Shown here in pieces: positions 7,086 through 64,000 of a stretch of 64,000 bases of DNA (position 1 is the stretch's first letter; every line of letters begins with the position of its first letter). The DNA is taken from positions 1 to 64,000 of the forward strand of contig JAUCBJ010008732.1 of NCBI GenBank assembly GCA_032718475.1, read 5' to 3'. The DNA is from Nemertoderma westbladi. Lineage: Eukaryota; Animalia; Xenacoelomorpha. The position numbers and the translations under genes were made by a program. The notes beneath the pieces are model-generated. The model did no database searches. It was not told where the DNA came from and saw only the letters and a list, made by a program, of their open reading frames with translations.

Positions 7086-7116
7086 TCAACTTTATTGCTT
7101 ACTGCAACAAAGAAGC

Positions 7117-8364: not shown

Positions 8365-10889
8365 CACTGTATTATTGTAAAATATTAATGAAATTGCCTG
8401 TAATGGATGAAACTTGTCATTTTTCGTACCATTTTTGACAATTGCAAAATTTTATAAACCTTGCCAATGAAATCAGCACATTCTAAAACCTCAGTAGCCT
8501 AACTATGCGACCAATTTACCACTTTTGGCTATTTTACAATTTTGAGCTACTTGCACTTTTGGTGCTGTTTTAGTGTCTATTAAAAATAAAAGATTCAATT
8601 TTGCTTCTAATCTCACTTTCGATTACTAATAATGAATTTAACAAACCAAAAAGGCATAGTATGGCTGTACCAAAGTCTTTGAAGGGTGGTGTACAGTATT
8701 TTGAGAATTTTTTCAATTCCGAAAGGTGCTGATATGGCATGGGTGCCAGGAACTCCTCATATCTCGAAAACTACTGGAGCTATTAAATTTTTATTTGACT
8801 CACCTGAAAGAGGACATAATTTTAGTTAGGGACAAGTACTTTCGACGAGCTAGACCTACTATTTCAGGGATTATAACTAAGAGAAATAACTGGCCCACTA
8901 AATTTAGGGGCTTTGCAGCAGCTTAGCGGGTCGTATCTATAGTAGGTCATGCCTTCACCATGGTTTGGGAGGTCTCTTGTGAAGAACTCAGAATTCACAA
9001 AGGGAAGCCTGGTCTGCCAGTGCTATCCACAAGCTAGCAGGATCTGGAAGAGTTGTGATCTAGATTACGATCATTGAAGGTACACCTTTTTCCGTACAGC
9101 AGTAGAGCCTACAGTACTGTATACTGATCTATGCATCCCACGCGGGACTCTAACTGCTGAAAACAACAGTTCTCTATTATACCAGGATGCTACGCAGGGT
9201 GCACAACCTTGCCTGCTTTGACGCACACATAAGCAATTGGGTGTTATACAACTATTGCAACATTTCATTGCAAAAACCAAGTATCTATCACCCTTCAGAG
9301 ACGACGCCTGAAGCTTGATAGACACTGTTTCCGGCGGCAGGATCAACCTGTACACAACCTTGTGCTGTGGCAGCCCGCTGGTTTAGATTATAATTATTAC
9401 CATAACTATAAGTAGGCCTAGCATTTCAAGCAAACGTAGTTCTCCAGATATCAAGTAAAGGTTCATATTATTACACTAAAATATGGCTAAAAATGTTTAC
9501 AAAATTAAGTTGATAGGTCGGGTAAAAATTGTACTGTCAAATAAAATACTGTCAATGTCGAATTAAGATATTGGGTGAAAATTGTACTGTCAAATAGAAA
9601 TACATAAAATTTAAATTGAATTAAAAGAAAATTGAATTGATACAATTATTAGATCCAATAATAGAAAATACTAATATCAGTTCACAAAATAATAATAATA
9701 ATAATAATTTTATAATTTGTTATTATACAGTATATATATACTGTATATATCAACTTGTCAGTCTAGGCCTACTGACTTTACAACCATTGACTTATTCAGT
9801 ACTGCAGTAGGTGTTAAGCACCAAATCTTAAAAACTAAAAAAGACATTATCTTTACCGGCATCAAACTGGTCAGTCCAAGTGCTAAATCAAATGCCTTTT
9901 TATGCGATTAGACCCGTAATAGTGGACAGTATTCTTAGGTAGGCCTATAGATGAGCATTGTTTGTTTTGCAAAGATGGTATTACTAATCCAGGCCACATT
10001 GGATATCCATCTTCTTTAGCCATTACAACGAGAGAAAGCCGCCCCAATATTAGATTATTACAACAACATATCCATTGGGTAAGAAAGTGGAGGAGAGCCA
10101 GCCCGTCTCTTAATTTTTTACTTTATATTACGCGATCAATTTTCACTCATCTCGTCATGAACCCAACATGTATGTAACCTTTTGTTAAATTTGTTGGCTA
10201 TGCGTTTGCGGTTGTTTGGGCGGAGTGTGGTAGGCCTACACTTTTCACACTTAAATATTTTGGTTGTGAAATGTTACAGGGCATAGCGATCTGAGATATT
10301 TCATTTATATTTTATTATGAGAGGAAGAAGAACATACAACGTTATTTACTATGTAACAAAATAATTGTTTTCGGGTATAACTTGGAAGCCTCCCCAAATA
10401 GTTGATATACAATTATATTTAAAATTATTTCCATGGTCATGGTCATTCACCCGTCTTTAGTTAGAAATTTGTTTGCATGAAAGACAGTTTAGTTTAGTTT
10501 TTACTGATTTATTATCTCTTATCTGACTGGGGTAATAATAAAGGATAGGATAAATGGAAGCAAAGTGTGACAGTAACAAATATTTCCCCGTCACTCTAGC
10601 ATGTCTTAAGTATATGATATATCAAAGGGGGAAGTTTGGATTCACTGCATAAATGCAGTTCACCAAACTTCCCCCGAATGCACACTGTAACTTCCCCCTT
10701 CCCACAAATATCCACTGTTGAATTAATTTGAAGTGATATAATAAGTACAAAATTGTGCGAGTTTTTTATTGTGTGGTCCAATTGTTATTTGATTTCTATT
10801 TATTATTTAAAGTGCATTTAATATCACACTGGTTTTTAGAATATTATACTATACAACCTTATGTTTTATTAATTTACCCAATCGAAGCC

Positions 10890-15700: not shown

Positions 15701-16085
15701 AGTTAACGTTTATAATAGAATATAATTAAAAATTCAAACAGATCAGAAACACAGTAGGGCCTACCGTATCCGTATGTCAGTGCTACAGTAGATCTATATG
15801 CAGTAGATTGTGGATCTGAATGGAGAGTATACATCAGTACATGTATGCCAGGTAATAATAATACGTACGAATTATGTACCCGGTGTCCCAGTCCCATTGT
15901 CCGGTACACAATGTAGATAAAGTAAGTAGGCCTAGTGATATGATATACCTCACAATTACAATTACAATTATCAAATTCAAACAATTATCAAATTACAATT
16001 AAGATTATACAATACTTACTGACTTATGGTACTTACTGTACTATCTGTACTGTACTTACTGTACTTACTTACTATACTTACTGAC

Positions 16086-17259
16086 TGTTCGCGCTTTTGA
16101 AGACCTTTAGCAGTTTAACCTGCCAAAATTTATATGTCTTTAGTTAATTAAAACACCTTTAGCATACGACAATATTTTATGCTAATAAACAAAACATTAG
16201 CCGAAGTCAGCCCATGCGCGATCATTCACCCGATGGATCTACACCCGGGAGGCTGAATTCGGATGCTTAAATTTTATTATTGCAGTGTAAGGTTGCAGTG
16301 TAAACCTACTGTATTATTCGATAGATCGTTAATAATTAATTTCTGACAGATATTATTGGCTTTCGGGAAATATTAACAGTTCCTTTACGCTCTATCTATT
16401 TAAACAAAACTAGGACTTATACTAAACGCAACGATACCGCTTATGATTAAAGTATAAGGCGCATTCTTTAGGAAATGCTTTGTTACCAATCACAATCATG
16501 CACACTATTCTGCCGACCGTCAGTAAATTTGATCACACATAAAGAGAGCAGCAATTGACTCATGTAGGGTCTGCTAAATAACATTAGATTCAATACACAC
16601 CACATTGATATAAATCGCAATTGTTATGTATAGCCTGTCTCTCTAACCTGTAGTGTATCAAGAAAATTGGGAATTTTGGGTGATTTATCCGTATTCTCCA
16701 AAGGGCAATAATTCATCAACAAATAGATACAATTAATAACTGACGGTAAATAACAGTACAAACAATATGATTAGTGCAGTTAAATTAAGTGAGTTAGGTA
16801 AGGTAACAGTTATACTTTCGATAATTTAAGCAGTTTTACTGGAGTTCTTCCCAAAAGCCGGTGTTATGGCGAAAAATGGGAACATAACAACAGAATCATA
16901 TGAAGAATCATATGACTACATGACTATACGAGGATACCAACTACCCTTACTCCCCGAAGCTCCCGTCCAACACAGAGGATGAGCATACAGATAGGAAATT
17001 CAGTTCAGTAGCTCTGGGATAGGTCAAAATCAACGCCCACTCAAATTCTATTGGCCGATACGGACAGCAGGGCTGAGGCAACCTCCCTAAGCTGGTTGGC
17101 CGATTAAACGGAGCCCAGATACCTCCGTACAGCACATCAGCCAATAAGCTGGTAGCTTGCACTATTTTAGCTATAGATCCCTTTTAGAGTATTCTAGCGA
17201 CCGGGGGGGAACTGGCCAGCAAAGGCAAACGAATCAGTTATCCCACAAAAGCTTTTACA
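16086..17259 (-). repeat. 3' LTR of BEL-2 (1174 bp)
   Basis: Direct repeat of 28979-30157 (by eye about 2 substitutions and 3 indels); TG...CA termini. Confidence 0.95.
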
Positions 17260-17268
17260 CCGCTCCCA
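17260..17268 (-). promoter_or_regulatory. Polypurine tract of BEL-2
   Basis: Sense TGGGAGCGG immediately precedes the TGT of the 3' LTR. Confidence 0.65.
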
Positions 17269-17337
17269 GAAAATGGGATTTAAGTCTATAAAATATACAA
17301 AATCACAGTTTCTAAAATATAAAAATACTCTAAACAG

Positions 17338-18787
17338 TTAGTCTTTCTTGCGCGGACGGCGTTTACGCAGTTTTTTAAAGCTAGCAAGAGTCCTTTTCTC
17401 TTTGGGGCGAGCCACTTTACAAGGAGGGCTATAACTCCTGGGTGAAGGGTGCAATATGATTGCATCAGAAGGTATGGGATTATGATCGGTATATCCGCCG
17501 GTCGAAGTACCGGGTTGATTGACATCAACGTCCGGGGAGAGGGGTCTAACGGCTTTGAGAGCTCGTTTCAAGACAGCCGCTCTTACGGGTCCTTTACGAG
17601 CGGTCTGAACGAGGGCCGTGGGTGGACCATAGGCAGTTAGAAACTTCCTTGGTTTAATGGTTCTTTCCAACTCGCGTTCGCGGGCTCGGTACTCGTAAGG
17701 CCGTCGATATACTTCCTGTAACTCGGGGTGTGAGTTGACAAATAAGTCTCCATAGGCAGGGTCTTGACGGATAAAGTTTATTAAGTTGTAAGAATAGATG
17801 TCACTCGGATTAATGCTCCTGAGAAATTCGCGTACATATTTGGTTGAAATACATTCTCCAACGCGCTTCAGTAGTTCGTAACTCGATATGCGTGATTTCT
17901 GTTCGACAGAAGCGAATAGATAAGGATGGAACGCATAAACTCCTTCGTAAGCGCGTCCAGGATAATAACGATGGCGCGAATCACAATGTAAATCAGCGTT
18001 CGCTTCCCAAGCTCTGATGTAACGTAGTGTGATCATTTCATCTACGCTTTCCAAATCGTGACTAAAAAGGGCAATCGAAACTGACACGTCCCTTTAGTTG
18101 ACAATGGTGACATTGAGTCATAAATTGAGGGCAAACCGCAAAAATGTGCAAGTTATTGAGTCTGTAATACGCGCAATAAATTTCCATCGTCGGTTGTTCG
18201 TGGAAATAGGAACAGCGGACGTTTGTGTCCATGGGCGTAACATGGTCTCTCGATGCGCATAACCGACAACGTTGCCGAGAAACATAGTTGGCATGGCGAT
18301 AATCGTACGCAGTGAGACACTGTGGACCTTGATACCATTCTAGGAGGTAATCGTTGTCGTTGTTCCGGGCGCGATAGGCTGAATCTCCTCAGATTCTAGG
18401 CATATTGGTTCGTCTTCCCAGTCTGTTACGAATATAATTTTCGTGATCTATTCTCGGTTTATCGTTACGACTCCGCTGGGTATGATATTTAAATAGAACC
18501 ATTTCCCTTTCGGTGTATACATCATCCGTATCATGTAAATCGATAGGATGGCCGGTAGTTAGGAAGTCCATATACGTACCATTACGATGCGTATAGCGAG
18601 CGGTTAATTTTCGATAGTCCAATTCACGCGTAAGTTGCTCTTGGGACATCGGCGGTTCGATATAACGACCATCGTCCTCCGTAATGGTTGGATCGGCTTC
18701 ACCGCGTATCAAGCTATCCACAAATGCTTGTAAAGGTAGAGTATATCGTTCCCTGATACCAAGATCATCTTCTATTAATTCCGTCAT
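17338..18787 (-). pseudogene. BEL-2 extra ORF (~480 aa reconstructed): triple zinc-knuckle protein
   Basis: Reading through the TGA at 18389-18391 gives CRLCASRDH..C, CAYYRLNNLHIFAVCPQ and CHHCQLKGRVSFDCPF. One extra T at ~18065 joins this to ORF 17338-18087 (SHDLES...RAWEANADLHCDSRHR...basic tail). Confidence 0.8.
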
Positions 18788-20408
18788 ATCTGCTATCTGA
18801 GTTTATTAATATTAGTATGAGTCAATATTTAGGCAAGTGGGCGTCGCTGCCTACTAGGCTTTGCCCCCGGACAGTGGGTTTCTCAGCGCCGATGTACCGT
18901 TGTCGCGGTGTTTACGCCAACATGTAGCAACAGCACGACAACGATAACCGGCACAAGTCCCACCACTGTCCGTCCCAAAGGCTTGAATCCACTTGAGGTT
19001 ATCTCGGTAGAGTTAGGGCTACTTTACAATTGCGATTAGCTACTGTAAACACACTTTAGTAGTAACATTCACCTATAAACGCACAAATTCCATACAATCA
19101 TTACTTACTGCACACATGCATGCCATTCGTTCGTTAGTCAGTGTCTTCCAGAATGTCACGTTATTACTATGTATCCTTGGATACTAATAGTGCGCTATGT
19201 ATACTCTTATGCTACGCAATGGGGCAAGCTTTTTATTGTTCCTTTAACTTGCTTCTAATTCTAGCGTGGGTGTTGCCATGGTGACATTATGGAAAACTAG
19301 CGGTAGAATTAGGGTAATTCTCATGCATACAGATCTGGGATGTTATTTAATAGTAATTCTTTAATTGTCAATATCCTCTTTATGCATGATTTTATAAATT
19401 TTATCGGCTATTGACTATATATGTTGGAGATTCTCGCACTTTAATACACTCAACATGAATCTCCGCTCCCATGATCTATTAATTACTGGAATTTTGGGAA
19501 GGTTATAAATTGCAAAAAATGACAATTTATGAAATTCATTTGAATATGAATTTAAATTTATTCCCGTGAATTTTATTATTTGATGTTAAATTGACACAAA
19601 TTTTATTCCAGAGCATGTCTGGGGACTCAGGATCCTTAATTCTATAAAATCGTCCTTTTAAGAATATCGGTAAATACTGCGATATTTTAATTGACTAGAA
19701 ATTTTAAAGGATCGGAATTTTACAGATTTTAATAAATATTAAATTAATATTTAGGATGGGCACCGATTTATTCCAGAACTTGTCTGGGGACGTTAACCAC
19801 TGATTCTAGAATTTGTCTTTCAAGTATATCGGTGGGTGCCACGATATCTTAATCGACTAGAATTACAGATGGTCAAAAAGTTTAACAGATTTATTTGCGA
19901 TTTACGCTACTGTTAGAGGGACATCACGCTACTATATGTATTATTTGTTATAAGGAAGAAGAGCAATATCGCACGAAGCAATGTCAGTGTGAAGAGGCAA
20001 GTCGTTTCCAAGGTCTACCCAGAGCTTGGTTTAGCCGAGACACGAGGATCTGAACTTTGCATTCCTAATACTCTGCCTACCAATAATACTTAAATATAGT
20101 AGTGGCTTTATTGTACTTTAAGAAGTACTGACATGTCATCTTACTATAGTCTCGCATTTATAATATAATACGGACAGTAAGGAAAGATAAAATAATTATT
20201 TCTTGCCGTCGCACTAAATATATTACAAGTAATTAAATACGTAATAAACACTAATATATTGCACTAATTTACTAAATATTCTAAAATAACATTCTACTAA
20301 ATAAAATTAAAGAAAACGATTATAATAAAATTACATAATAATACATACATAAATATAAAATAAAAACAAATATAAAATGATATAGTCACACGCCCACTCC
20401 ATATGTTA

Positions 20409-23400
20409 TTACGTTATGGAGTCCCTAGATATTTGTCGGATTAGGGAAGTGGTCGTAGGAAGAGTATCTTGCCTTCCATAGTTTCCGGACAGTTTTCGGT
20501 CTCTTTCCAGTAAACATAAACGACTAGCTGGGCGATTGAGTTGTTGTGTTACTTTCTCCGCTCCCTTGGCCTGTCTAATTTCTGCCGTGGTAAGATGAGG
20601 AGGCCATTCTTCTTCTTCTTTACTTAAGGAGTCGGATCCACCTAACCAGCCTGGAGTATCTATCAGTTCTTGAGGAGTTGCTCCTCTGGAAGCGATGTCG
20701 GCTGGATTAATCGTCCCAAGGCAATGTCTCCATTGATCTACATTGGAGTTAATATCGTCATTATCTGAGGAGTATGGTGTTCCCTCAGTTGGATCGTCCA
20801 CATCACTGCTCTCCACTTCCCCCTTTACTTGGTATACCTGTTGTTGAGGTAATCTCTCTTTGAGAGTTCTACGGGAAGGGCCAGTGAAGTACCAACCTAC
20901 TCTAGTTCTTACCGCATAGGTTTGTAGTGGCTGCGGTTGAGCAGGCCGTTTCTCCAATGTCTCGAGCGCCTCATGCGCGTTTTGGCCGATGAGTATTTGC
21001 ACTCCAGGATAATCTGTCTGGAATCGAGGTATCTTAAGATGTTGGATGCTCTCATCCTCGTCCCAATTATAAAGGTCTGCTTGGGTAGTAGCGAAGTTCT
21101 TTATAGCCACCATTTTTACCGACCTTATACCTTGTGCTCCTAATTTATCCTGGGGGGTGGATAACACACCTACATAGTAATCTGCCGTTAGGGTAGATTT
21201 CCAAACCTGCATAATTCCTGACATATTCAATTTAGTCCGGAATTTGGGTTGTCCAGCAAAGATATCTTCGGCTAGTTCTTGATCGATGAATGTTCCTGTG
21301 CTGCCGGAGTCAAGGAGGGCGTTCACTATGTAACTTTTGTTAGGACCGTGAACTCTTACCTGCACTACAGGAAATTCTCTGATTCCTACGTTGGAAGTTG
21401 GAGCTTTCCAAGATGGTTGTCTATCAAAGGTTGTTGGGGGAAACTCATTGTTGGTGTCCTTTTCATAAGTAAGTGCTCGATACACTGAGGTATTTATTAG
21501 GTAACAGGATTCGTTGGCGTCGGAGAATTCGTCAGTATAGAATCCTTCCATCTCAGACTCTTGATCAGTGTCATTTATATCACTGAATTGGACATGTAGT
21601 TCGGGCTCACTTACCTGACTCGGGTTGTCTCGTTCGAACTCACTGTGTAACAAGATGTGATGTTTCGCGCCACACTTTGCACACTTTACGTCGGAGTAAC
21701 AGGTTCGCCGTTGGTGTCCTGATCTGAGGCAATTATAGCATAACCGCTTATTCCACAGGACTGTACGTCTGTCTACAAGGGATTTCTTTAGAAATTCAGC
21801 ACACGCACTCAAACGGTGGGGCCCGTCGCACAGCGCACATTTTGGTTTGATGTTACTCACCTTAACTTGGTTAACGTTATGCACTCTCGTTCTTTCTTCG
21901 GGCTTTCTTCCGTGAATTCTCTTAGGAGACTGAGGAGGGGTCTTGGCAACCTGTTCTCTCCTATCGTTGTTTCGAGCCTTGTATTTACTTACGTCCTTTG
22001 AGGTTTTGTCAACATAATAAGATCGGTCTGTATCTTTCCCGCTGTCCTCTTCTTGGGAAGCTTGGCTTTCGCCGTCGTCAGTGTAACACACCGGTGTTAC
22101 TCTTCTCCTAGAAGTGGGTTTCTCACTTACCTTATTTTCCAATGTTTTCTCTCTGGACTGCTTGATGAGTTGTAGTTTTACTTCACCATCTAAGAAAGAC
22201 ATGAGATCAGCCATGGTAGGACTTCGTCGTTGTTGTTCATTCATGTACAACACTTTCTTGTCCCAGCGTGTACATACTCCACCCTTTGGTAAAGTAGAGA
22301 CTACGGCTCCAATAACCATGGAACTCTGATATTCATGCGACTTACCTAACCAGTCCAGTTGTCTACAGATCTCTTGAATTTCATCGGAAAACTCTATAAT
22401 CCCGCTACTAAGGAAGTGTCGGGGGGCTACTAATTTTGCATACAAATACTTAGCTATGTTATCCTTGTTACCATACCTGATGTTTAATGTATCCCAAACT
22501 TGTCTTAATCCGTCTGGATGTCCAATAAACTTTAACGCCATTAACTTGGGAGGTCCTTCCAAGCACTTGATGAGGAATCTAAGTTTCTCTCCGTTAGATA
22601 GTACAGAATTCTGTATGCTATCTTTGTAATATTCGTTGAAAGGTAACCATTTCATCTCATCTCCATTGAATTTGACGATCTCTCCCACTTTGACCGCTTG
22701 GCGGGCTTCTGTTCTAGCCATCTGACGCGTAAAACTTTCTTGGGCCATCGTGTTATTTAATATCGAATTATCGGTATATAAATTTCTCGGATCATTATCA
22801 GGTCTATAGGGAATATCATTAATAACAGGTCTATAATCACCCTTAATAGGGTTTGCTATAGGAGTTTCTACTTCACTAGCAGTATAGATGCGTGTAGGCT
22901 CCACACCTTGCGCATGTAATACTTCAGACCTAACAGGTTGACACAATGTTACAGGGGGTATTGGTATGCCCTTTTGTATATTGACTAATTTGTCGCGTTC
23001 TAGCGCGATACTTTGCTGCACTTCTTGCAACTCTGCTCTACCTTCCCTCACTGTTCCCTTAAGTTGGTGGACAGTCTCCTGCATCTGTCCCAGCAGGAGA
23101 TTCATCCCACGCCGTCCCTCTTCCACCCACTCAACCGCCGAAGCGGGAGTCGCCAACATAGTAGCGGGCTGACGCGGGACGACGGGAGACAAATTTTTAA
23201 TTTCTCTCTCTGCTATCTGGACAGGGATATTCTCTTGGACTGTTCCACCGGGTACAGGCAGTGTAGTACTATGTAAAGGGAATTTAGAGTTAAGCTCTGG
23301 AAGTACAGGGGTCTCTAACACAGAAGTGACTTTGGGAACGACAGGCCTAATTATCTCAGGCTCATCAACTATTGTAGAGAGTCTTTGGACCTTAATACTT

Positions 23401-25136
23401 TGGGCTGTAGGTTCTATACTACTCAAGTCTGTGCTAGCTAGCTGTCTTCTAACAGCTGGGGGCAAATCAGGCAATTTGCGACGGTAAGATGTTTTTCTAC
23501 GCCTACTTAGATGAGATCTATTTCCTCCGCCTTCAGGATCGGTAGTCTCGCCTTCCTCCGAGGATGTGTATCCCTGGCGCTTGGGAGTAGATTTTCTCAT
23601 CATCTGCATTTGATTAGCAGTAAACTGTTTATTTATACTGTCTTGCGTCTCTTGCAGATTTTCCAACTCCAATTGGATAGTCTCCTCAGAAGCTCTCCGT
23701 TCTGCTTCTGCCACTGCTGCTTTTCTTTCTGCTTCTGCTTCTGCCGCCTTTCTTTCGGCTTCTGCTTCTGCTTCTGCCGCCTTTCTTTCGGCTTCTGCTT
23801 TTGCCGACTTTCTTTCGGCTTCTGCTTCTGCCGCCTTTCTTTCGGCTTCTGCTTCTGCTTCTGCCGCCTTTCTTTCGGCTTCTGCTTTTGCCGACTTTCT
23901 TTCGGCTTCTGCTTCTGCCGCCTTTCTTTCGGCTTCTGCTTCTGCCGCCGCTGCTGCTGCCACCTTTCTTTTCTCTATCCATTCTTTCTTTACTTGTTCT
24001 TCTCGGACTCTAGTGAGGCGGAGTTTTTCATCACATTCAGCTTGGTTTGCAGCTAACATTTCGGCATCGATTGAGTCCAACACGAGCTTGGTTCCTTCAC
24101 TATTAGGGGAAAGTCCAGACAGCCGTCTCCTCAACTCTTCGTCTCCTAGGAAACGCTGATAGTCGGACAAATAAATGTCGATAGCGTCTCTAGTTTGCGG
24201 TTTCTCGGCGGTCTCTTCGCTTTCCGCTTGAGAAAGGTTGACATCAGTTTGTTCTTCATAGGGTGATCTCTCAGCCAGCTGGGATTTCCACTGGGCCGTT
24301 TCCTGTACTTTGAGACCTACCCGATGTAACCAAGTTTTGACAGCAACCTGCAGCGACGTGTCCTGTCTTCTTTTGGAAGTTTCCTCAAAGGCTGAGAGGA
24401 TTAGTCGAATGCGTAGGGTTCTTTCGCGTACTTGGTATAGCAGCTCTTCCTGCTCTTGAGGTCCTTGAGGTTGTCGAAACAGTTGTTCTTCCAATCGCTC
24501 CAAGGAGCCGAAGAATCCCTGCACATATCCTGCTGCCGACCTCTTCCAAACAGCTGGATCCATTGTATCTTTAGCCACTCCCATCCTGTGTATATCTTCC
24601 CAAGTAGCCTCGGACAGATCCAACGGGAGTCCGAGTCCGGGAAAGTTCCATTGTGACTCGACAATAGACATCAATTCTTCCCTGGCGTATCCCGCATAAT
24701 TATCTTGGGTCGCTCGCTTATTTCTCGCCCAGTCGGCTTGATGTTCCTCCACTGCAATGAATATAGTAGTTAGCACTGCAGCAGGAAGGGTAAGAAGGGG
24801 GTCCGAGTAGACTGTAGCAGCTATCTGCACTCCGCTTTCGGGGGTCAGCTCTACAGTATCCGAACTACTGGAGCTATCGGGTCGCTGGGATGTAGGTTCT
24901 TGACCAAGATGTTGCTGCGATGGGACAACTGCCTCTTGGTTCCGTTTGACCTGTGCCCGAGTGCCTATGATGGACCTATGGTGGATTAGCCTAGGGTCTG
25001 ATACTACTGGAGGGATGACCTTTCTTGCAGTAGGAGGTGAGCTGAACTCCTTTCTTAATCGCTCCACACTCCTATCTGTGTCACAGATGGTTGTATCGAT
25101 CAGACTGTCTGACAGGTTTTGCTGAGTGTCAGACAT
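20409..25136 (-). CDS. BEL-2 Gag-protease polyprotein, 1575 aa, with internal pol deletions
   Basis: AEAERK coiled-coil repeats, a DUF1759-like KFNGDEMKWLPF region, the BEL triple knuckle CALCDGPH..C..CYNCLRSGH..C..CAKCGAKHHILLH, protease LLDSGS, then QWRHCLGTINPADIASRG (end of RH) and RPASRLCLLE (end of IN). Confidence 0.92.
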   Translation of the reverse strand: MSDTQQNLSDSLIDTTICDTDRSVERLRKEFSSPPTARKVIPPVVSDPRLIHHRSIIGTRAQVKRNQEAVVPSQQHLGQEPTSQRPDSSSSSDTVELTPESGVQIAATVYSDPLLTLPAAVLTTIFIAVEEHQADWARNKRATQDNYAGYAREELMSIVESQWNFPGLGLPLDLSEATWEDIHRMGVAKDTMDPAVWKRSAAGYVQGFFGSLERLEEQLFRQPQGPQEQEELLYQVRERTLRIRLILSAFEETSKRRQDTSLQVAVKTWLHRVGLKVQETAQWKSQLAERSPYEEQTDVNLSQAESEETAEKPQTRDAIDIYLSDYQRFLGDEELRRRLSGLSPNSEGTKLVLDSIDAEMLAANQAECDEKLRLTRVREEQVKKEWIEKRKVAAAAAAEAEAERKAAEAEAERKSAKAEAERKAAEAEAEAERKAAEAEAERKSAKAEAERKAAEAEAEAERKAAEAEAERKAAVAEAERRASEETIQLELENLQETQDSINKQFTANQMQMMRKSTPKRQGYTSSEEGETTDPEGGGNRSHLSRRRKTSYRRKLPDLPPAVRRQLASTDLSSIEPTAQSIKVQRLSTIVDEPEIIRPVVPKVTSVLETPVLPELNSKFPLHSTTLPVPGGTVQENIPVQIAEREIKNLSPVVPRQPATMLATPASAVEWVEEGRRGMNLLLGQMQETVHQLKGTVREGRAELQEVQQSIALERDKLVNIQKGIPIPPVTLCQPVRSEVLHAQGVEPTRIYTASEVETPIANPIKGDYRPVINDIPYRPDNDPRNLYTDNSILNNTMAQESFTRQMARTEARQAVKVGEIVKFNGDEMKWLPFNEYYKDSIQNSVLSNGEKLRFLIKCLEGPPKLMALKFIGHPDGLRQVWDTLNIRYGNKDNIAKYLYAKLVAPRHFLSSGIIEFSDEIQEICRQLDWLGKSHEYQSSMVIGAVVSTLPKGGVCTRWDKKVLYMNEQQRRSPTMADLMSFLDGEVKLQLIKQSREKTLENKVSEKPTSRRRVTPVCYTDDGESQASQEEDSGKDTDRSYYVDKTSKDVSKYKARNNDRREQVAKTPPQSPKRIHGRKPEERTRVHNVNQVKVSNIKPKCALCDGPHRLSACAEFLKKSLVDRRTVLWNKRLCYNCLRSGHQRRTCYSDVKCAKCGAKHHILLHSEFERDNPSQVSEPELHVQFSDINDTDQESEMEGFYTDEFSDANESCYLINTSVYRALTYEKDTNNEFPPTTFDRQPSWKAPTSNVGIREFPVVQVRVHGPNKSYIVNALLDSGSTGTFIDQELAEDIFAGQPKFRTKLNMSGIMQVWKSTLTADYYVGVLSTPQDKLGAQGIRSVKMVAIKNFATTQADLYNWDEDESIQHLKIPRFQTDYPGVQILIGQNAHEALETLEKRPAQPQPLQTYAVRTRVGWYFTGPSRRTLKERLPQQQVYQVKGEVESSDVDDPTEGTPYSSDNDDINSNVDQWRHCLGTINPADIASRGATPQELIDTPGWLGGSDSLSKEEEEWPPHLTTAEIRQAKGAEKVTQQLNRPASRLCLLERDRKLSGNYGRQDTLPTTTSLIRQISRDSIT

Positions 25137-26612
25137 GTTTAGCTATACAGTTGAATGTCTACTACTATAGTTTCAGTTAAAGCAAGTCTGGTAATTCAGT
25201 ATGACCGCAAGCCTAGCGATTTATTACCGGTACCGTTACTCGGTGTAACGTGATATATATACAATATATTAGAATACCGGTATGCTTATAGTATATATAA
25301 GTATTATTACAGACTAGATTTGTCACAGAGTACCGGTATATAATTTTAGCACAAATATATATAATATATAATAGGCCTATGGTGAATACCGGTATACAGC
25401 TGACACTTATAGTATATATAAGTATAATTATGAACTAGAATTAATTACAGAATACCGGTATGATTTCAGCTCAAATTTATAGAAATAAATATAATAAGCC
25501 TATGGTAAGTACCGGTATGTCAATTATTTTTTAGAATAATTGAATTTCTGAATATTTTAGGGTTACTTGGTTACTTTAACTTACTTTATTACCGTTATTT
25601 AAGCAGTAGTCCAACTGATATTGAGACCTAGTTGTTGTAAGGCAGGCCTACTATTTATAAATCGTTTGAGTTGATTTATAATAGATATATACCCGTTTAA
25701 AAAGGGGTTTTGTCAATATTTGAAATAAATGTTATTATTTCTGGGGGAGTCACTACACAGAAGCTGTGCGCTCTCAGTGAAGTGTTACTTATTGAGACAC
25801 TAAAACAGATAATTCTAATTTACCTAAGTTACTTAATACTACAAATTACTTACGATACGGGTGAGATTAATTCTCTAATTAAAAACACAACAAAATATTA
25901 CGTACGAAATTTTAGGGTAATTTTACAGGGAAACTACAAACCAGCCTAACAAAGGGTTAGATTTCTGGTTATTACAACGGACAGGGTACTACGGTATTTG
26001 AAATAATAAGTAGTAGTAAATATATTGCACTGTCCAGATAGGAAAATACCACCGCCTGACGACCTATAACCGTTTCGCTATAGGTACTACGTTATGTATC
26101 ACGGAGTGTTCCTACCTAGAAGTTAATAGAGCTAACGAATGTGCCTATCAACCACTTTACAACACAAATATACTGCCTACACACTAATTACTCTCGGAAG
26201 CACTGTACACTAAACCCTAAATTAGGTACAAGTACTGGTACAACAAATAATCAGTAGTTAAATATACTTGAACAGTTAAAAGAACCACGGCATCTGCTGG
26301 AGTGACCAGAGCACAAAGTCACCAGTCTTGTCCTACGCCAAGCAGCCCGTGTAGTACCGGGGTTAATTTAACTATAACGGTATGTATAACAAGCACAATT
26401 ACTGTAGGGATAAACTTGGGGACATGAATGTTGCGAATAATCGCATAAACTCTGAATAATAAATATTACGCTACCCGTACAGAATACTCAAACAAAAATA
26501 CAAACCAAACGCTGGCAGACTACTATCAAGCCTAAACAAACTACAGTATGTGCAGATTCTGAAACTGTTAGTTAGTATGCGTTCTAACACGGTAGTACGA
26601 CTTATTCTTTAA

Positions 26613-28189
26613 CCCTATTAAACCCGGGGGGGGGGGGGGGGGGTCAATATGACCCCTCCCGTGGTTTTTTTATTATAATTCTGAAACAAACGCAGTTGGG
26701 AATCTGAAATTTTATGACTTTTCCTAAAAATCTATTGTCTTCATGGTAGTGAAAACCGTTTTCAAAATATTGGGTACTTTTCGAGTTATAGCACCATATT
26801 TTAACCCTACCTTTGGCACTTTTTTTGAGACGTTTTTTGAAAATTACATTTCATTAAATATGAATTGTAACATCTCTATTTTTGATTTACACCGGTTTTT
26901 TGGTGTTAGAAATTGGATGGAATTCATATAAATTGATTTAGAAATTTCAAACTTGTTTTTTTCGATGGGTGCCAAATTTTGGTGCCAGCACCAAATTTTG
27001 AAATAAGTCAATTTTGTAAATTGATTGTTTGAAACTTGTTTTTTTACGTAATTGGGGTTTTTTGAGGTTCTGGATTCGATGAAATATATACGAGTTGAAC
27101 CAAGCGTATCAAACTTGTATTTTTCGGTGCTGTGTGCTAATTTTGGTGCTAGCACGAAATTTTGAAAATCCATTCAATATATAAAATTGCTTGTGACAAT
27201 TTATTTCTTGCGTTTTAGAGGTTTATGGCTGTTCTGAATTCAATGGAAAATATAATTATCGAACTAGACATCTCAAACTTGTATTTTTCGGATGTGGGTG
27301 CAAAATGTGGTGCTAGCACCAAATTTTGAAAACCATCAAATATATCAATTGATTGTGTCACCTTGTTTCTTGCGTTATACGGGTTTGTGATGGTTCTGAA
27401 TTCAATGGAATCAGTAAAAATTTCATAAGAGTTCTCAAACTTGTATTTTTCGCCGGTGGGTGAAAATTGTTGTGCCAGCACCAAATTTTGGAAAATATGC
27501 AAATTGATAAGTAGATAGTATCACCTTGTTTCTTGCGTTATACGGGTTTATGAGGGTCCTGAATCCGATGGAATCAATAAAAACAGCACTGGACATCGCA
27601 AACTTGTACTTTTTGGTGATGGGTGCGAAATTTGGTGCTTGCACCAAAATTTGCTAAATTACGCGAAAAATACAAGTAGCAATGATCTGGCATATTAGAA
27701 ATGTATTCCATTAGAATCAGCGCCCTCGAAAACCTGAAAATGTGAATTTATAGCATTGTATAAGTGAATTAAAAATTTTGTGTTCTATCTGAAAAGTGCT
27801 GGTTACTTGTTTTTTTCATTTTTTTCCTACGCAGAGAGGACTAAACAGCCATTTATAGTAATTATATCATTTTCAAATATTTTCCAATGTATTTTGCACC
27901 CCAAAAAACCTGTATTGAAAAATAATTAGCCGAAAATGTAACTTTCAAATTTTGTGAAAATTGTGCACTACTTGTAATTTTGGTGCTGCAATATAACCAC
28001 CCCAGTACATTTTTTCGAAAATTTCTTTTTTCGGTCGAATCCAGACAAGTGATACCTACGTACAAACAAAAAATCAGAAAAATCACAAAAAATCAAACAA
28101 ATAAATATTTGTAGATTTTAGAGGGGGGGGGGTCAATATGACCCCCTCCCGGTATTTGTACAACATTTTATAGCCCGGTACTAATAGGG
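26613..28189. mobile_element. Non-autonomous piggyBac-like element (1577 bp) in the BEL-2 leader
   Basis: TTAA TSD at 26609-26612 and 28190-28193. TIRs CCCTATTAAACCCGGG / CCCTATTAGTACCGGG, subterminal ggggtcaatatgacccc repeats and internal degenerate tandem units. The empty site cttattctttaagagggg is visible in the duplicated leader unit at ~28470. Confidence 0.9.
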
Positions 28190-28968
28190 TTAAGAGGGGA
28201 TTGACCTTACAGCATATGGCTGCCCCAACTTACTAACGGCACTTTATCAGACAAACTCTACACACGCAGCAATCCCTTCAGGCCTAAGAATAGCTAGACA
28301 TCAATCTAGCCTACAAAATATTTGAGTAATAACTATTACGGTACCTGAACAGACTACACAAACAAACACAGGCCAAAATGCTGGTAGACCACGATCAAGC
28401 CTAAATAAACTACAGTATATGCAGATTCTGAAACTGTTAGTTAGTATGCGTTCTAACACGGTAGTACGACTTATTCTTTAAGAGGGGATTGACCTTACAG
28501 CATATGGCTGCCCCAACTTACTAACGGCACTTTATCAGACAAACTCTACACACGCCGCAGTCTCTCCAGACTCAACAACAGTCAGACAACAGTCAAGCCT
28601 ACAATTATTTGTACAATTTGAGCAGGGTCACACGCCTTCTGCTCAATATTAGCTTACATGTAAATAAAACCGACAGAAATAAGTAGAATCTCAAATAAAA
28701 ATCAGGGCGGCCGTTCCCTGATTGAGTACCAAGACCTACCGGTATACAATAATCAAAATCGAATAATACTAATGTACTTATACAGCAGTACCGGTTAGGA
28801 CAGTCGGGCCTACAGACCTACAGAAGTACCGGTTCTGGCAGTTGGACCTACGGACCTACAGCAGTACCGGTTCTGACAGTTGGGCCTACTGACCTACAGA
28901 AGTACCGGTTCAGGTTTACCGGTCACTACGGTATTTTTCAACCTTATTGCTTACTGCAATAAGATCGT

Positions 28969-28978: not shown

Positions 28979-30157
28979 TGTTCGCGCTTTTGAAGACCTT
29001 TAGCAGTTTAACCTGCCAAAATTTATATGTCTTTTAGTTAATTAAAACACCTTTAGCATACGACAATATTTTATGCTAATAAACAAAACATTAGCCGAAG
29101 TCAGCCCATGCGCGATCATTCACCCGATGGATCTACACCCGGGAGGCTGAATTCGGATGCTTAAATTTTATTATTGCAGTGTAAGGTTGCAGTGTAAACC
29201 TACTGTATTATTCGATAGATCGTTAATAATTAATTTCTGACAGATATTATTGGCTTTCGGGAAATATTAACAGTTCCTTTAGGACGTGGTGCTCTATCTA
29301 TTTAAACAGAACTAGGACTTATACTAAACGCAACGATACCGCTTATGATTAAAGTATAAGGCGCATTCTTTAGGAAATCATGCATTATCACAATCATGCA
29401 CACTATTCTGCCGACCGTCAGTAAATTTGATCACACATAAAGAGAGCAGCAATTGACTCATGTAGGGTCTGCTAAATAACATTAGATTCAATACACACCA
29501 CATTGATATAAATCGCAATTGTTATGTATAGCCTGTCTCTCTAACCTGTAGTGTATCAAGAAAATTGGGAATTTTGGGTGATTTATCCGTATTCTCCAAA
29601 GGGCAATAATTCATCAACAAATAGATACAATTAATAACTGACGGTAAATAACAGTACAAACAATATGATTAGTGCAGTTAAATTAAGTGAGTTAGGTAAG
29701 GTAACAGTTATACTTTCGATAATTTAAGCAGTTTTACTGGAGTTCTTCCCAAAAGCCGGTGTTATGGCGAAAAATGGGAACATAACAACAGAATCATATG
29801 AAGAATCATATGACTACATGACTATACGAGGATACCAACTACCCTTATTCCCCGAAGCTCCCGTCCAACACAGAGGATGAGCATACAGATAGGAAATTCA
29901 GTTCAGTAGCTCTGGGATAGGTCAAAATCAACGCCCACTCAAATTCTATTGGCCGATACGGACAGCAGGGCTGAGGCAACCTCCCTAAGCTGGTTGGCCG
30001 ATTAAACGGAGCCCAGATACCTCCGTACAGCACATCAGCCAATAAGCTGGTAGCTTGCACTATTTTAGCTATAGATCCCTTTTAGAGTATTCTAGCGACC
30101 GGGGGGGAACTGGCCAGCAAAGGCAAACGAATCAGTTATCCCACAAAAGCTTTTACA
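28979..30157 (-). repeat. 5' LTR of BEL-2 (1179 bp)
   Basis: Direct repeat of 16086-17259. Confidence 0.95.
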
Positions 30158-57075: not shown

Positions 57076-59641
57076 TCAGTTCATCCCCCCTGACTTTGGG
57101 AACCACCTCAAGTCTTTCCCTTTGCCGTCCTCCTCCCTGGGTCGTTTCCTGGTCACTACCGCTCCTCTGGGATCCGCTTTCTGTCTTCGGACCCTCGCCG
57201 CCACCTCCTTACTGATCCCGGTCGTTGGCTCCCTGGGTGCTGGTGTTATCAGCTCCCGATATCGCTTCGCGGGTGGCCCCTCCAAGTGGCCCTGTTGTCT
57301 CCCCCTGGTGGCGTCCCATATGATCATCTTCATTGCCCGCGGCACGTGCTCCGCCAGGAAATCCCTAAACTCCCCTCGGTTCTGTGGCGTCCACCTGTCC
57401 AAATACCTTTGTGTATTCATCACCCCGAGCATACGACGCCGCCGTTGCTACCTCTTGATAGGTAAACGGTAGCCTCCGCTTTATGATTTCCATGTGAGCC
57501 TCCTGATTGATGAGGAAGAAACCCCACTTGAACTCCTGGGCCTTCATGCGCTGGCGCGTCATGGCCCCGACGTCGGCCCACTCCTCGAATCTTCTGAACT
57601 TCTCTTCGTCGTCCATCCAGTCGCACTGGCGTCCGTAGTGTCCCCGAAAGTTGCACTTCGGACATCGGTTATGCAACCGTGGACACGCCCCCATCCTGTG
57701 GCTCGACTCGCGGCAGTAGAGACAAAAGGTTCCCTTTTGGAACCGGTACAAACAGCTCCTTTCCTGGTGGGTCTGTCTCCCACAGTAGTCGCAACCGAGT
57801 ACCAATGTCTCCCGCCCCACGTCGTCTTTCGTCCCAAGCGATCTCCGCGGTCTGTGGAGTCGCTGGTAGGCGAACTTCTGCACGTTAGTGTCCCTGTCTA
57901 CGTCGATCTCTCCGCCCCTCTCGGGCATCGTCTCCCCGAATACTACCCGTGGTGCCGTCCCCGGTTGCTCGCCCAACCTGATAGTGCTCCCCGCGAAATC
58001 CATCGCCGGCTCCTCGTGCACCCAGGCCCGCTTGCCGGGTCTATCCCAGAAGGCCCTCGCCCCACTGGCCGTCACCACCCTCCCGCCAACCCAGTCCGTG
58101 TCCGAGTGGCCAATCCTCTCGATGGGCGGCACCCCTCCGAACTCGTCGTCGTCTTCCTCCTCCTCTGGCAGTGGCTCCAACCCCGGTATCCCGATGGATC
58201 CACTATGTCCCTTCCCGCCTTGGCTCTCGCCCGTAGCTCTCCATCCCTCTAGCTCCCTTAACTTCCTTGGCGGTTGGTCGCCTTCGGCGCCCGCTGGTAT
58301 GGGCATCGCTTGCAACCCCGACGTCGACTGTTTCGGCGATCCCACCGTCCATCCCAATTCTCGCCCTAGAGACTCCCCCGAACTCCCTGATGAAGTCCAA
58401 CGAAGTTCGTCTAAGCCTGCCTGTTCCTCGAAGCCGTAACTCTGCGTCCTGGCCTCCTCCTCCCTCTCCTCTGCTTCTATCCTCTCCCGTCTAGCGACTT
58501 CCTCCAGTCGCTTTGCCTCTCGTCTATCCGCCTCTAGCTGCTCCCATCTCTGATACGGCGTATCTGTCTCCCCGTCTATCAGATGTCGGCTGTTGTAGTA
58601 CACCGACTCGCCCTTCAGCCCCGGGTGGTCTACCAGACCGTCGAAGGCCGTCTTAAAGGCTCTCCTGTAGCTTAGGGGTGATCCCGATAACAGAAATGCC
58701 GCTGGTTCCCTCTCGATAACCACGGTCATGAATAAGTTAAGCAAACTTATCATCATCCAATCTTCCTGCAGGATATATCGCTTCTGATATACCTTTATCG
58801 CTCCTCTGCGGAATTGATATACCTCTTGCCTTCCCGGTCTCGCTCCCCACTTTAGCGAGTTCGCTAGTTCTGCTCCGTATTCCTCCCTGAACTTCCCCCA
58901 GTCCATCGGTTTGTGGCATACGAGCCCCAATAGCTGGCCCATTGCCACCGCCCCGCATTGGCCTGTGTTCCCGACTACCCCCAACCCATCTGGTGCCGTC
59001 ATAGCCATGAAGACCTTCTGCATATCCAGGAGGTTGGTGGCGTCCGGACCGATGATTCTCTCCGCGTCCTCGCGAATCGCCGATCCCTCCTTCGTCGTCG
59101 ACTTCTCTCTTACCAAGACTTGCACCGCTTTCGGCAACCGGTTTAATTTCGGCCCGTCCTTCTTCCCATACGTTCCTAGATCGAATAAGAAAATGTCCCC
59201 ATTTGGCGCGGCCAAATGTAGGAGTATGGTCCTGGCCGACCCCGCTGATCCTCGTCTCGAACCCTCATCGTCTTCCACGGTTCCCTCGTCGTCTAGGATC
59301 ATATATCCTCCCCTGTTGACGGACTCTATGAATCTCTTCACATCCTTCTTCGGCGACTCCCTCGGGTACTTCGGAATCCCGAACTTCGCCTAGTCCCCTT
59401 TCACCACGTAGTGGAAGTGTTGGAAGATCGCGTTGTCCAGCGACGGCGTCCCGTAGGTCCCGACCAGCCGCTGTTCGTGCATCTCCCGGAAGTGGTCCTG
59501 CAGCACTCGTGCCGCGTGACCCTTTTCCAACCTCTCGTAGTACCCTCTCGTCTTCTCTTCCGGATGCCTCTTGGTGAAATCCACCAGTATCTCCTTTCCT
59601 CCTGACTCCGCCTTTCTCTTTCTGATCAGTTTTCCCGCCAT
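57076..59641 (-). pseudogene. BEL-4 extra ORF (~850 aa reconstructed): DEDDy 3'-5' exonuclease-like domain, acidic linker and triple zinc knuckle
   Basis: ORFs 59390-59686 and 57365-59341 are in frame, separated by one TAG. ORF 57076-57432 continues after a probable frameshift at ~57435. Motifs: YMILDDEG, LLHLAAPNGDIFLFDL, KEGSAIREDAERI, QKRYILQED; CDYC..H..C, CLYC..H..CP, CPKCNFRGH..C. Confidence 0.8.
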
Positions 59642-60571: not shown

Positions 60572-63195
60572 CTAAGGTGCCCCTTCTAATAGACAGCATT
60601 TCCCTACAGCTCTCCTGTAGGTTTTTCTGTCTTTCGCACCGATCTTTCCACCTATCCGCACTTCTACCGATCGGACTCTTCCGTCCTCATCGGAGTAAGT
60701 GCCTACGACTCTCGCCAACCGCCACTGGTTGTTGATGATAGTATCATCCGTGACGATTACGAGATCTCCCTCTCTTAACTCCCTATTTGACTTCCTCCAC
60801 TTGCTTCTTTTGTGAAGCGTGGGTAGGTATTCCTCAACCCACCTCCTCCAATACTCTGCGCTTATTGCTTTAGCGACCTTCCAACTCTGGCGGGAATGTA
60901 TGTCATCTGGGTCTACACCCCGCATATCGATGGTCGCTGGCCTTTCCATTAGAAAATGGCTGGGTGTCAGCACATCTAATGACTCAGGGTCATCATTCTC
61001 CGGATATAGCGGTCTGCTATTAATGATCCCCTCGCACTTCGCAAGCACTGTCCTTAAGACGTCCTCAGTGACCATGTGGGTGTTCATTAGCTTCGTCATT
61101 AGACGCTTTGAACTGCCCACCAGTCTCTCGACGCATCCTAGTGTATGTGGTGCATACGGCGTCCTTCTCTCCCACTTTACTTGTCGTCGTCTCATGGCCG
61201 CCCTGACTTCCTCCCCTTCCAAGATGTCCAAGGCCTCTGCCATCTCGTTCTCTGCTCCCACAAAGTTGGTTCCGCTGTCGGAATACATTACTGCGATCGT
61301 CCCACCTTTGCAGTCTCTGAATCTTTCTAATGCATTAATAAATGCTGATGCGGTTGCATCTTGGGCGAGTTCTATCCCTACCGCCCGCGTGTTGTTACAT
61401 ACGAAGATAATACCGTAGCGTTTCTCCGTGTGCCGCATCACCTTGATCTTTATCGGCCCGAACATGTCCACACCGCAATGTGTAAATGGCGGGTCGTGCT
61501 GTCTTACTCTACTCGCCGGTAGTGGCGCCATCTCTTGTATGGCTCGCTCCTTCTTCGCTCGTCGGCAGGTCTGGCACTGCCCCACTACCGCTTTTACCTT
61601 CTTCCTCAACTGCTTGACCCAAAAGGTCCTCCTTATCTCCGTGAGAGTTCGGTTTGTGCCCCCGTGCAATATCGACTTGTGGGAGTCCCAGATAATCTGG
61701 TGGACTATTGGTAATCCTGTGGCAATGATGATGGGTTTCGGTGGTACGACTATGCTGTTGTTGTATCCCACCCTAGAATTCATTACTAGAATCCCGTCGT
61801 CATTAAGTTGTGGCGACAGCGCGATCAGCTCGCTGTCCCGTCGAAGGTGCTGTTGGTTACCGACGCGTTCCACCTCGTCGCCATAGTTCTTCCGTTGTTC
61901 ATAGCGGATGACTGCCTTGGCCGCTCCTTCCAGATCTATGGTTGTCCTGATCTTCTTGTCTTTGCCAACTCCCGCGAGGAAATTCCCGAAGGCTCTCCAG
62001 TACGCCACTAATTTCTTGGTCTTATACCAACTAGAGCTGTAGCTGAGGAGTTTATCTGTCGGGTTATCGCACAGTTCTTCTGTCTTAGGTTGCACGTCCC
62101 TTATCTCCCTCACCATCTGGGAGTATATCTCTTCTCCCTCTGAATCTCCCTCTTCTCCTTCTGACACTACCTCTCCTGAGTCCGGGTCCACCTTTCTCAT
62201 CGGCGGCCAGGCCTCCTTGTCGCTCAGAAACTGCGGCCCGTGTTGCCACAATCCTTCCTTTTTTAAGAAAGTGTGGCGTGCCACGCCCCGTGATAACAAG
62301 TCCGCTGGATTCTCGTCCGTTGGGCAGTAGTGCCACCTTTCCAATTCTGTGGTCGCCCTTATCTCGTCCACCCTGTTAGCGACGAATATAGGGTATCTCG
62401 TCCTTTCGTTATGTAGCCAACCAAGCACTACCATGGAGTCCGTCCAGTAGTGTGTCTCCACTATGTTGGGAATAGTATCCACTAGGTAGGCTGTGGCTCT
62501 AACTCCTAGTCTCGCAGCTGTCAATTCTAATTTGGGAACTGATGCTGAATCTGGCGGCGTTGACTTTGCTTTGCTAAAGGCCAGTCTGGGCTTGTGAGCC
62601 CCCTCTCGTTGTACTAAATAGAGTGCCGCTCCGTACGCCTCCAACGACACATCGGAGAACATGTGTAGGTCCAGATTCGTCATGTTCCCATCCGGGAAAT
62701 ACACTCGTGGCATGTTGTATGTTCCCATCTTCTCCAAGTCTCCTGTCCACTTACTCCACTGTCTCTTGATTTCCTCTGGTACCTCTACGTCCCACTCATC
62801 CTTCAATTTGTATACTCTCTTGAGTATCTGTTTCCCGGTGACTAATAATGGGGATGCTAGACCTAGGGGATCGTATATCCTTGCTATATACGATACATAG
62901 CCCCTCTTCGTGTGGATGTCTGCGCCCTCCTGGCTCAGCTGATACTTCAGCTCATCTGTCTCTCTGTTCCACACGATTCCCAATGCCTTCTGTTGAGATT
63001 CTGTTCTCTTGTTCGCCATGTCCTGCCCTTTGGCTGTTGTGGGATTATCCATGGTCGATTCTGGTCTCTTGTCCTCTATCGCCTTGATAAATTCCTCCGA
63101 ACTGGATTGGAATTTGGTCAGGTTAAAGCCGGATCCTTTTAGGATGTCGCGAACCTCGCGCCCTGTGTCCAGTATCTCCTTAACCGTAACTGACG
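60572..63195 (-). CDS. BEL-4 pol C-terminal part: end of RT, RNase H, integrase
   Basis: GFNLTKFQSS, KALGIVW, IYDPLG, HMFSDVSLEAYGA, PKLELTAA, WTDS, NPADLLSRG, HHCC zinc finger, GVDMFGP, SDSGTNFVG, VERLVG, INSRPL and a DUF5641-like end. Confidence 0.92.
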
Positions 63196-64000
63196 GTAAC
63201 CGATCTGACCGACCGATCGTCGACCGGTAACTCCACGGCCCATCCTTTCTCGACGTACTTCTTAATCGTTCTGTGGATGTACTCATTCTTCTCGCGGCTC
63301 CGTTTTAGTGTTTGTTTCAGCTTGCGGAGTCTCGTGAGTACCATCCCTCTATTATCGGGCAGTGGTAACTTCGGTAGTTTCCATACCATTCCTATGGTGT
63401 ACCGCCCCTCGTCGCACTTCATAGACTCCTCTACGCTCTGCTGAGCCTGTTTGTCTTCCACCGAGGTCCCGACCCCGGTTTCCTTTAATCCTTCAAAATC
63501 CTGTCTGAGCAGTCTTTTAAGTTGCTCCTCTGCTCTCTCATCACTCATTTCCTGCATAGTTCCCGCGAACATGCATCCTGATGTCTCCGACATCCTAAAT
63601 GGTATCTTGCTCTTGATTGGGCCACTTAGCGTCCACCCGAATGGTGTCAGTATTGCCACCGGGTCAGACTGCTTGTCTTCGCCGAAGACCGTTTGCATTC
63701 TTTCGTGGGCCGTTGGGCAGTCCATTCCTACTATGATGGATACCTTCCTAACGTCCACATCTGGGATTGAGAAGTCAATATCGTCCAGAAATTTATATTG
63801 TTCGACCTCGATGTTGGTTGGCCGTCTGGCATTGATGTTTATTGACTCTATCACTTGGATGGGGTCGATGCTCGCCCCATAGTCGCATCCTGGTGCTATT
63901 GCTGCAATGGTGCACCGTCCGGTTCTCATCTCCAGGACCTCATCTTTGCTGGAGATGGTTGTTACCGCCATTCTACTTGGCCTCGTTCTCAATCCTATTT
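63180..64000 (-). CDS. BEL-4 pol: protease C-terminal part and RT N-terminus, broken by the RT-core deletion
   Basis: VSIIVGMD, PVAILTPFGWTLSGP, SVEDKQA, GRYTIGMVWK, LPDNR and YVEKGWAVEL. Confidence 0.88.
   Translation of the reverse strand, partial: IGLRTRPSRMAVTTISSKDEVLEMRTGRCTIAAIAPGCDYGASIDPIQVIESININARRPTNIEVEQYKFLDDIDFSIPDVDVRKVSIIVGMDCPTAHERMQTVFGEDKQSDPVAILTPFGWTLSGPIKSKIPFRMSETSGCMFAGTMQEMSDERAEEQLKRLLRQDFEGLKETGVGTSVEDKQAQQSVEESMKCDEGRYTIGMVWKLPKLPLPDNRGMVLTRLRKLKQTLKRSREKNEYIHRTIKKYVEKGWAVELPVDDRSVRSVTVSYG

Follow-up and report, generated by a model that had tools for sequence, protein, structure and literature searches.

Does the broken reading frame at the 3' end of a dead BEL retrotransposon represent a gene family, and what might such a gene do for the elements that carry it? 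The question arises in a window of 64,000 nucleotides from the xenacoelomorph Nemertoderma westbladi (GenBank assembly GCA_032718475.1, contig JAUCBJ010008732.1, positions 1 to 64,000). A first-pass annotation of this window proposed that two divergent BEL elements, BEL-2 and BEL-4, both carry an extra ORF with three zinc knuckles just before the polypurine tract (PPT), and that this ORF belongs to an old, modular accessory gene family, with or without an exonuclease, which defines a BEL clade.

Results

The BEL-2 element and its split reading frame

BEL-2 is an LTR element on the minus strand, with TG...CA ends, a PPT and an LTR pair 98.15% identical (Table 1). The flanks (16081-16085 and 30158-30162) show no matching target-site duplication, and recombination or assembly may be the cause of 98% LTR identity without one. 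Its gag-protease ORF has 1577 codons, with DUF1759 (E 9e-12), an LLDxG protease and a triple Cys-His box in the translation. RT and integrase are missing, and the PR-RT-RH-IN series is reduced to the protease and, at about 20580-20750, an RNase H remnant of 56 aa: BEL-2 is an internally deleted copy. BEL-1, a sister family at the left window edge, matches it at 83% over 5.9 kb; comparison of the protease region gave both elements low, mixed scores and no placement among BEL lineages. Neither has a TGG primer site; instead, each has a hairpin that begins some 10 nt past the LTR. Apart from a 10-mer around the AATAAA of the LTR, the hairpins were not found to pair with it. Elsewhere the window contains large tandem arrays of 21-nt and 18-nt units (37767-45400 and 47400-50100), an RT ORF of non-LTR type interrupted by a stop, part of a BEL gag (DUF1759) and a piece of a fibrinogen C-terminal domain (32461-34074 (+), 34007-35473 (+) and 35642-36163 (-)).

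Table 1. Features of the BEL elements in the window.
Feature	Position	Strand	Remarks
5' LTR of BEL-2	28979..30157	-	hairpin behind, no TGG primer site
3' LTR of BEL-2	16086..17259	-	TG...CA; 98.15% identity to 5' LTR
PPT of BEL-2	17260..17269	-	
Hairpins behind LTR	28941-28969 (BEL-2), about 7090-7115 (BEL-1)	-	same loop; stem changes preserve pairing
BEL-2 gag-protease ORF	20409..25142	-	DUF1759, triple Cys-His box, aspartyl protease; RNase H remnant at end
BEL-2 extra ORF (ORF3)	17338..18787	-	482 aa with X at two breaks; family member without exonuclease
N-terminal region of BEL-2 ORF	18392..18787	-	in knuckle frame; constrained; no relative detected
Break 1, in-frame stop	18389..18391	-	
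Three zinc knuckles	18071..18268	-	starts 18268, 18175, 18112
Break 2, frame change in T-run	18062..18068	-	indel there in part of the depth of other copies
Post-knuckle helical block (WEANAD..SRHR..GVY..SYELL)	17815..18027	-	family-specific; collinear with profile
Lys/Arg-rich tail of BEL-2 ORF	17341..17418	-	9/12 residues
BEL-4 extra ORF	57076..59641	-	854 aa with X at two breaks
DEDDy exonuclease of BEL-4 ORF (predicted)	about 59350-58590	-	
Knuckle core of BEL-4 ORF	57814-57437	-	
Putative PPT of BEL-4	56369-56386	-	
BEL-4 pol, RNase H-integrase part	60572..63304	-	Peptidase_A17, Integrase_H2C2, DUF5641

The extra ORF of BEL-2 had been described as hidden by one stop and one frame change, and positions 18787-17341 of the minus strand do read as 482 aa across these breaks, with all the quoted motifs in place. 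Two zinc ligands are missing from this copy: the second Cys of knuckle 2 and the His of knuckle 3. No relative was detected for the N- and C-terminal parts of the ORF. Between 18370 and 18460, several runs have loose ends and clustered indels, which suggests that subfamilies differ in sequence between the N-terminal region and the knuckles.

Contigs of four runs (X1, X3, X4, X5) placed on 17200-19100 reveal a very high-copy, diverse BEL-2 family. Among the best 40 of 261 variant rows, 35 of which fall inside the ORF and clear of the frame break, and with the comparison serving as a biased proxy of dN/dS, 18 of 29 shared variants are at synonymous third positions (P 0.0014); upstream of the stop at 18391-18389, which itself falls outside these best 40 rows, the count is 6 of 7 (P 0.007). 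None of the six changes private to the window copy, meaning that it differs from at least 93% of the depth in both X1 and X3, is synonymous, and two of them hit the missing knuckle ligands. Because family variants are mostly synonymous and the private changes are not, the BEL-2 ORF appears to be a decayed copy of a selected gene.

Both breaks could instead be programmed recoding, by stop readthrough and a shifty stop, yielding short and long products. Such an origin would suit the position of the frame change in a T-run beside a stop, and the indel found there in only 16% (X1), 33% (X3) and 0% (X5) of the depth, figures made uncertain by the under-calling of gaps in short contigs. However, the single X4 contig that spans the frame break has the indel, the reading frame continues at least 45 aa beyond knuckle 3 in 106 of 118 loci of the family described below, the breaks of the BEL-4 ORF fall at other positions, and the BEL-2 copy has other private damage. 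Damage is the more likely origin of the breaks, and we consider recoding highly improbable.

Comparison of the BEL-2 and BEL-4 ORFs

The BEL-4 ORF, in which the motifs quoted by the first-pass annotation are found, is also broken: it has a stop at 59392, and its frame changes near 57448. A candidate acceptor-like AG precedes the start codons of both ORFs. As had been stated, the elements share no obvious DNA similarity: blastn of BEL-2 (16084-30162) against 54001-64000 gave no match at E<0.1. At the protein level the two ORFs reach a Smith-Waterman score of 71, which is equalled by 0 of 300 plain and 0 of 300 Cys/His-fixed shuffles (the latter peak at 70), and a BLASTP E of 2e-4. The pre-knuckle regions are unrelated by the same kind of comparison, 108 of 300 shuffles scoring as high. 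The register of the original by-eye alignment reappears in the profile alignment, but the best local alignment behind the knuckles takes another one. By itself, this pairwise resemblance is only suggestive of homology.

Two further traits that had been ascribed to both ORFs hold for BEL-2 but are not general. Its stop (17338) lies 69 nt from the PPT, whereas the BEL-4 ORF ends about 700 nt before the putative PPT of that element; and BEL-2 does have a Lys/Arg-rich tail, whereas in the family at large only 15 of 62 closed ORFs contain at least six K/R in 12 aa after the core. Within 56340-56420 (minus strand) of BEL-4, a strong hairpin directly precedes the putative PPT and another lies at the putative LTR start.

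A family defined by the knuckle core

A HMMER scan of 1.84 billion proteins with the natural BEL-4 frame gave 78 matches at E<=0.001, from which we removed three with generic knuckles or low complexity (P0027, P0045, P0072). The remaining 75 outside proteins, with no window sequences, were used to build a core profile of 186 positions. On this profile the BEL-2 protein scores 34.9-36.2 bits over positions 25-165, and 300 shuffles of it with Cys and His held fixed reach 17.8 bits at most, so that the match is significant beyond the spacing of the cysteines. The knuckle frame alone scores 30.4 bits, and the frame after the break alone, which aligns to the profile positions that follow, scores 2.4 bits (E 0.008). 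Given these scores against the shuffles, the BEL-2 ORF is a divergent but genuine member, collinear with the family across its frame break: three knuckles, two ligands of which are missing, precede an F/W-E-x-x-A-D..R..G..Y block. The knuckles had also been held to differ from those of Gag, and the Gag boxes in the window score 2.0 and -3.3 bits on the core profile, against 34.9. Across the family the zinc ligands are invariant or nearly so, an outcome that in one of two comparisons follows partly from how the search motif was built.

The core resembles little in existing collections. Word-index homolog searches returned no relative for either ORF, and Pfam gave no match above its cut-off for the two ORFs or for the family domains of the 78 matches, the nearest approach being DNA_pol_A_exo1 in P0018 (23.3 against a cut-off of 23.6). 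Eighty cores run against Pfam gave scattered weak knuckle matches only, and an Atlas search with the BEL-4 core found only generic knuckle clusters, under 0.9. Modelled alone (pLDDT 83, pTM 0.78), the core is predicted to pack its knuckles on helices, and Foldseek matched the model to nothing in PDB or BFVD at E<=0.001 (best Z 2.6). On this model the core is possibly an RNA-binding triple-knuckle-plus-helix domain of new fold. One protein (P0002) has two knuckle cores in tandem after a single exonuclease domain.

Genomic setting

We scanned metagenomes with a motif that matches 59 of the 75 proteins, obtained at least 120 stretches and examined the flanks of 80. Most of these loci belong to a few series of related assemblies and do not count as independent host samples. 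Of the 120 matches listed, 117 score as members on the core profile. The motif matches in L014 and L071 are due to chance, and L079 scores below the core threshold, yet has both exonuclease and pol. A BEL pol precedes the motif on its strand in 34 of the 42 loci with at least 3 kb of upstream sequence and in 29 of the 31 with 5 kb or more; no pol was found on the other strand, and in 37 loci the pol end is 1.55-4.75 kb from the motif. The gene is widespread and has a slot between pol and the 3' LTR, on their strand, and the BEL-2 ORF fits it. In three loci (L051, at 5002-9657 on the minus strand, L005 and L052), the extra ORF measures 1550-1590 aa, and the N-terminal half of it is overlapped by a second open frame of 710-780 codons; the long ORF that comes next in L051 begins 235 nt past the extra-ORF stop.

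The linkage to BEL pol bears on whether the matches are mainly host genes unlinked to BEL elements, or generic knuckles aligned by cysteine spacing. Two loci (L012, L022) have no BEL pol within 10 kb, and five (L008, L032, L072, L075, L061) have no close pol-bearing relative, with core identities of 36-39%. Against this, L022 is flanked by LTR-like direct repeats, the five unplaced loci have less than 3.4 kb upstream, the ORFs are long and uninterrupted, and the core shares its descent with the integrase (see below). The nearest pol-bearing loci of L012 and L022 are L058 and L003 (45-56%). Since the flanks were queried for BEL pol and one non-LTR RT, other element types may stand beside the unplaced loci. 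A host or generic origin is largely refuted by these data, and we give it almost no weight.

The same motif found 0 matches in viral contigs and 12 in prokaryote genomes, six of which belong to the family (L123, L124, L127, L128, L130, L132). These six come from two GTDB pond MAGs, where they sit on short contigs, and one has a BEL pol next to it. They are probably animal DNA in bacterial bins.

An RNase D-like domain that is intact, degenerate or absent

An N-terminal exonuclease domain is found in 31 of the 75 proteins, many of the others being short and maybe fragments. BEL-2 had been said to have none, and indeed its ORF scores -2.5 bits on the exonuclease profile, against 89.8 for BEL-4; over all six frames of 16001-30200 the profile found nothing. 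In an AlphaFold model of the natural BEL-4 frame, the N-terminal domain resembles Nibbler, RNase D and WRN (Z 13.2-13.8, rmsd 3.1-3.8, 167-196 residues aligned), with Nibbler at Z 13.8 (rmsd 3.6, 196 aligned) and E. coli RNase D at 13.4. Exd1 and Egalitarian are also among the closest folds, and the matches to Nibbler, RNase D, WRN and Trypanosoma brucei RNase D (TbRND) span Z 12.6-13.8. From this model the domain is predicted to be of DnaQ-like fold and of the RNase D/Nibbler-like DEDDy type.

The DEDDy signature (D-x-E in ExoI, D in ExoII, Y-x3-D in ExoIII) varies. BEL-4 itself has D, E, D and Y, and then E in place of the last D. All four acidic residues are present in 31 of 59 aligned relatives, as read from profile columns in which divergent rows may be misregistered. 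Ten loci (L002, L007, L031, L033, L037, L038, L060, L062, L069, L080) have the exonuclease fold without the ExoI acidic pair and form one well-supported subclade, and two (L047, L059) have open ORFs of 1063 and 923 codons beside BEL pol and no exonuclease domain. Judged from these sequences, the knuckle core appears to be the constant part of the protein, and the nuclease an option that can be intact, degenerate or absent.

Co-descent with pol

Distances between cores and distances between integrases are strongly correlated across 33 loci and BEL-4 (Mantel rho 0.87, 0 of 2000 permutations), and remain so for pairs under 60% identity (rho 0.85); the core and integrase trees share groups of 11, 5 and 6 rows. 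Kinship alone predicts such a correlation, which therefore argues for co-inheritance and not for co-evolution. There is no sign of frequent swapping of the core between elements. The integrases of carrier elements are only about 22-36% identical. Together with the profile and the linkage to pol, this co-descent supports the proposal of an old accessory gene family in which a knuckle core occurs with or without an exonuclease.

The gene may also define one BEL clade, as had further been proposed. In a pol tree of 148 rows, made of carriers and 120 pol relatives of BEL-4, so that the outgroups are BEL-4's best matches, 25 of 27 carrier pols group together (SH-like support 99), and the carrier state requires 3 changes against 16 in shuffles. 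Outside this group fall L010 and L079, which are near it, and BEL-4, a long branch elsewhere. A single clade of all carriers is not rejected (p-AU 0.14), on 47 of the 148 rows and with BEL-4 as a long branch. BEL-2, which has no RT or integrase, offers no sequence to place in the pol tree.

Discussion

Our analysis places the broken BEL-2 ORF in a gene family linked to BEL pol. Many BEL elements have it as a third gene, located between pol and the 3' LTR, and we propose, with somewhat less than an even chance, that its core binds the element's own single-stranded RNA. The present data would fit host small RNA as the ligand as well as element RNA. TbRND has the same two-part architecture with knuckles that bind RNA, and it is from this likeness that we infer an RNA-binding accessory protein. 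The triple-knuckle core would be its essential part, since the zinc ligands are nearly invariant whereas the acidic tetrad is complete in about half of the aligned relatives and two loci lack the domain altogether. The core would grip element RNA in the particle or RNP; an active nuclease would trim RNA 3' ends, and a dead one could serve as a second RNA-binding surface. ORF3 would be made from a separate, probably spliced, subgenomic RNA.

The main alternative, though doubtful, is counter-defence against small-RNA silencing: piRNAs would be bound or trimmed too far by the protein, or the protein would mimic host factors of the Nibbler/Exd1 type as a decoy. Nibbler, Exd1 and Egalitarian are indeed among the nearest folds, but every RNase D-like enzyme has this fold, and the leading matches tie in Z. 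An entire subclade keeps the fold without catalytic residues, like Exd1 and Maelstrom as described in the accessible part of one study (PMC5408684), and long variable linkers with repeated catalytic loss would fit an arms race; the core, however, evolves in step with the integrase, without frequent swapping. It is similarly doubtful that a large aquatic-invertebrate BEL lineage has its own small-RNA counter-defence, in which a core whose fold may be new is joined to a Nibbler/Exd1-like domain, and this domain has more than once turned into a pseudo-nuclease or been lost.

A role as a second nucleocapsid-like chaperone for reverse transcription, for example in tRNA-independent priming at a hairpin, is improbable. 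The triple CCHC array would suit such a role, as would the hairpins of BEL-2 and BEL-1 in elements with no TGG primer site. The hairpin primer site, which the first-pass annotation would have scored alongside the gene, is not a general trait, because a TGG-type PBS is present in all three carrier loci whose 5' LTR end can be resolved; moreover, Gag retains its own triple box, and the core profile fails to recognise it.

The window copy of BEL-2 is dead and deleted, and the value of the finding rests with the family. Reported third genes of BEL/Pao elements are captured envelopes in the available portions of the sources (PMC13524379, PMC554778), to which we add an accessory gene of non-envelope type; third genes with a nuclease had been described from other, rotifer LTR lineages (PMC5408684, available text). 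In the literature we searched, which lay outside Repbase, subscription journals and supplements, we found no report of such a gene in BEL elements. The core domain is unannotated, and the natural series of intact, degenerate and absent nucleases lets its function be probed, separating the handling of element RNA from the countering of small-RNA silencing.

The env-like ORFs of BEL/Pao elements occupy the slot after pol and before the 3' LTR, as does the BEL ORF3. Examples in the consulted text are Roo, Tas, Cer7 and chuvirus-like glycoproteins (PMC13524379, PMC554778). Unlike these, ORF3 is predicted to encode a nucleic-acid-binding protein with a nuclease fold, and not a fusogen. The triple Cys-His box of BEL/Pao Gag, in the available description (PMC554778), also comprises three knuckles, the last two of them separated by a short linker. 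However, the third knuckle of the family ends in Cys (C-x2-C-x2-RG-H-x4/5-C), that of Gag being given as CX2-4CX3HX4H in the same text (PMC554778), and the family has a conserved LH in the knuckle linker, while Gag attains at most 2 bits on the core profile. An old common origin of the Gag box and the ORF3 core may nevertheless underlie the resemblance.

The closest precedent is a set of third ORFs encoding DEDDy enzymes, known from the bdelloid rotifer LTR retrotransposons Juno and Vesta and from Athena/Terminons (PMC5408684), and those of rotifer LTR lineages and Terminons are also treated in PMC6431247; the accessible parts of the former propose roles in 3'-end processing or silencing. Like the BEL gene, the rotifer ORF3 follows pol and encodes an RNase D-like DEDDy exonuclease (PMC5408684). 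Unlike it, the rotifer ORF belongs to non-BEL/Pao lineages (Juno, Vesta, TelKA and Mag are named), and the available text, our comparison being by description, mentions a Cys-His-Cys motif in two ORFs and no knuckle array (PMC5408684). The same text (PMC5408684) describes swapping of the rotifer ORF between element classes, whereas the constant knuckle core of the BEL family tracks pol.

The best PDB match is TbRND (7c42/7c45; profile E 3e-7, Foldseek E 4e-4), which like the BEL-4-type ORF joins a DEDDy exonuclease through a linker to tandem CCHC knuckles (PMC7797062, available text). According to the same text, its knuckles supply RNA binding, feed the nuclease and boost trimming (PMC7797062). 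In contrast to the BEL family, TbRND is a cellular enzyme; it has four knuckles, which no helical block follows, and the core alone matches it only at E 0.36. The architecture that TbRND and the BEL ORF have in common may be convergent.
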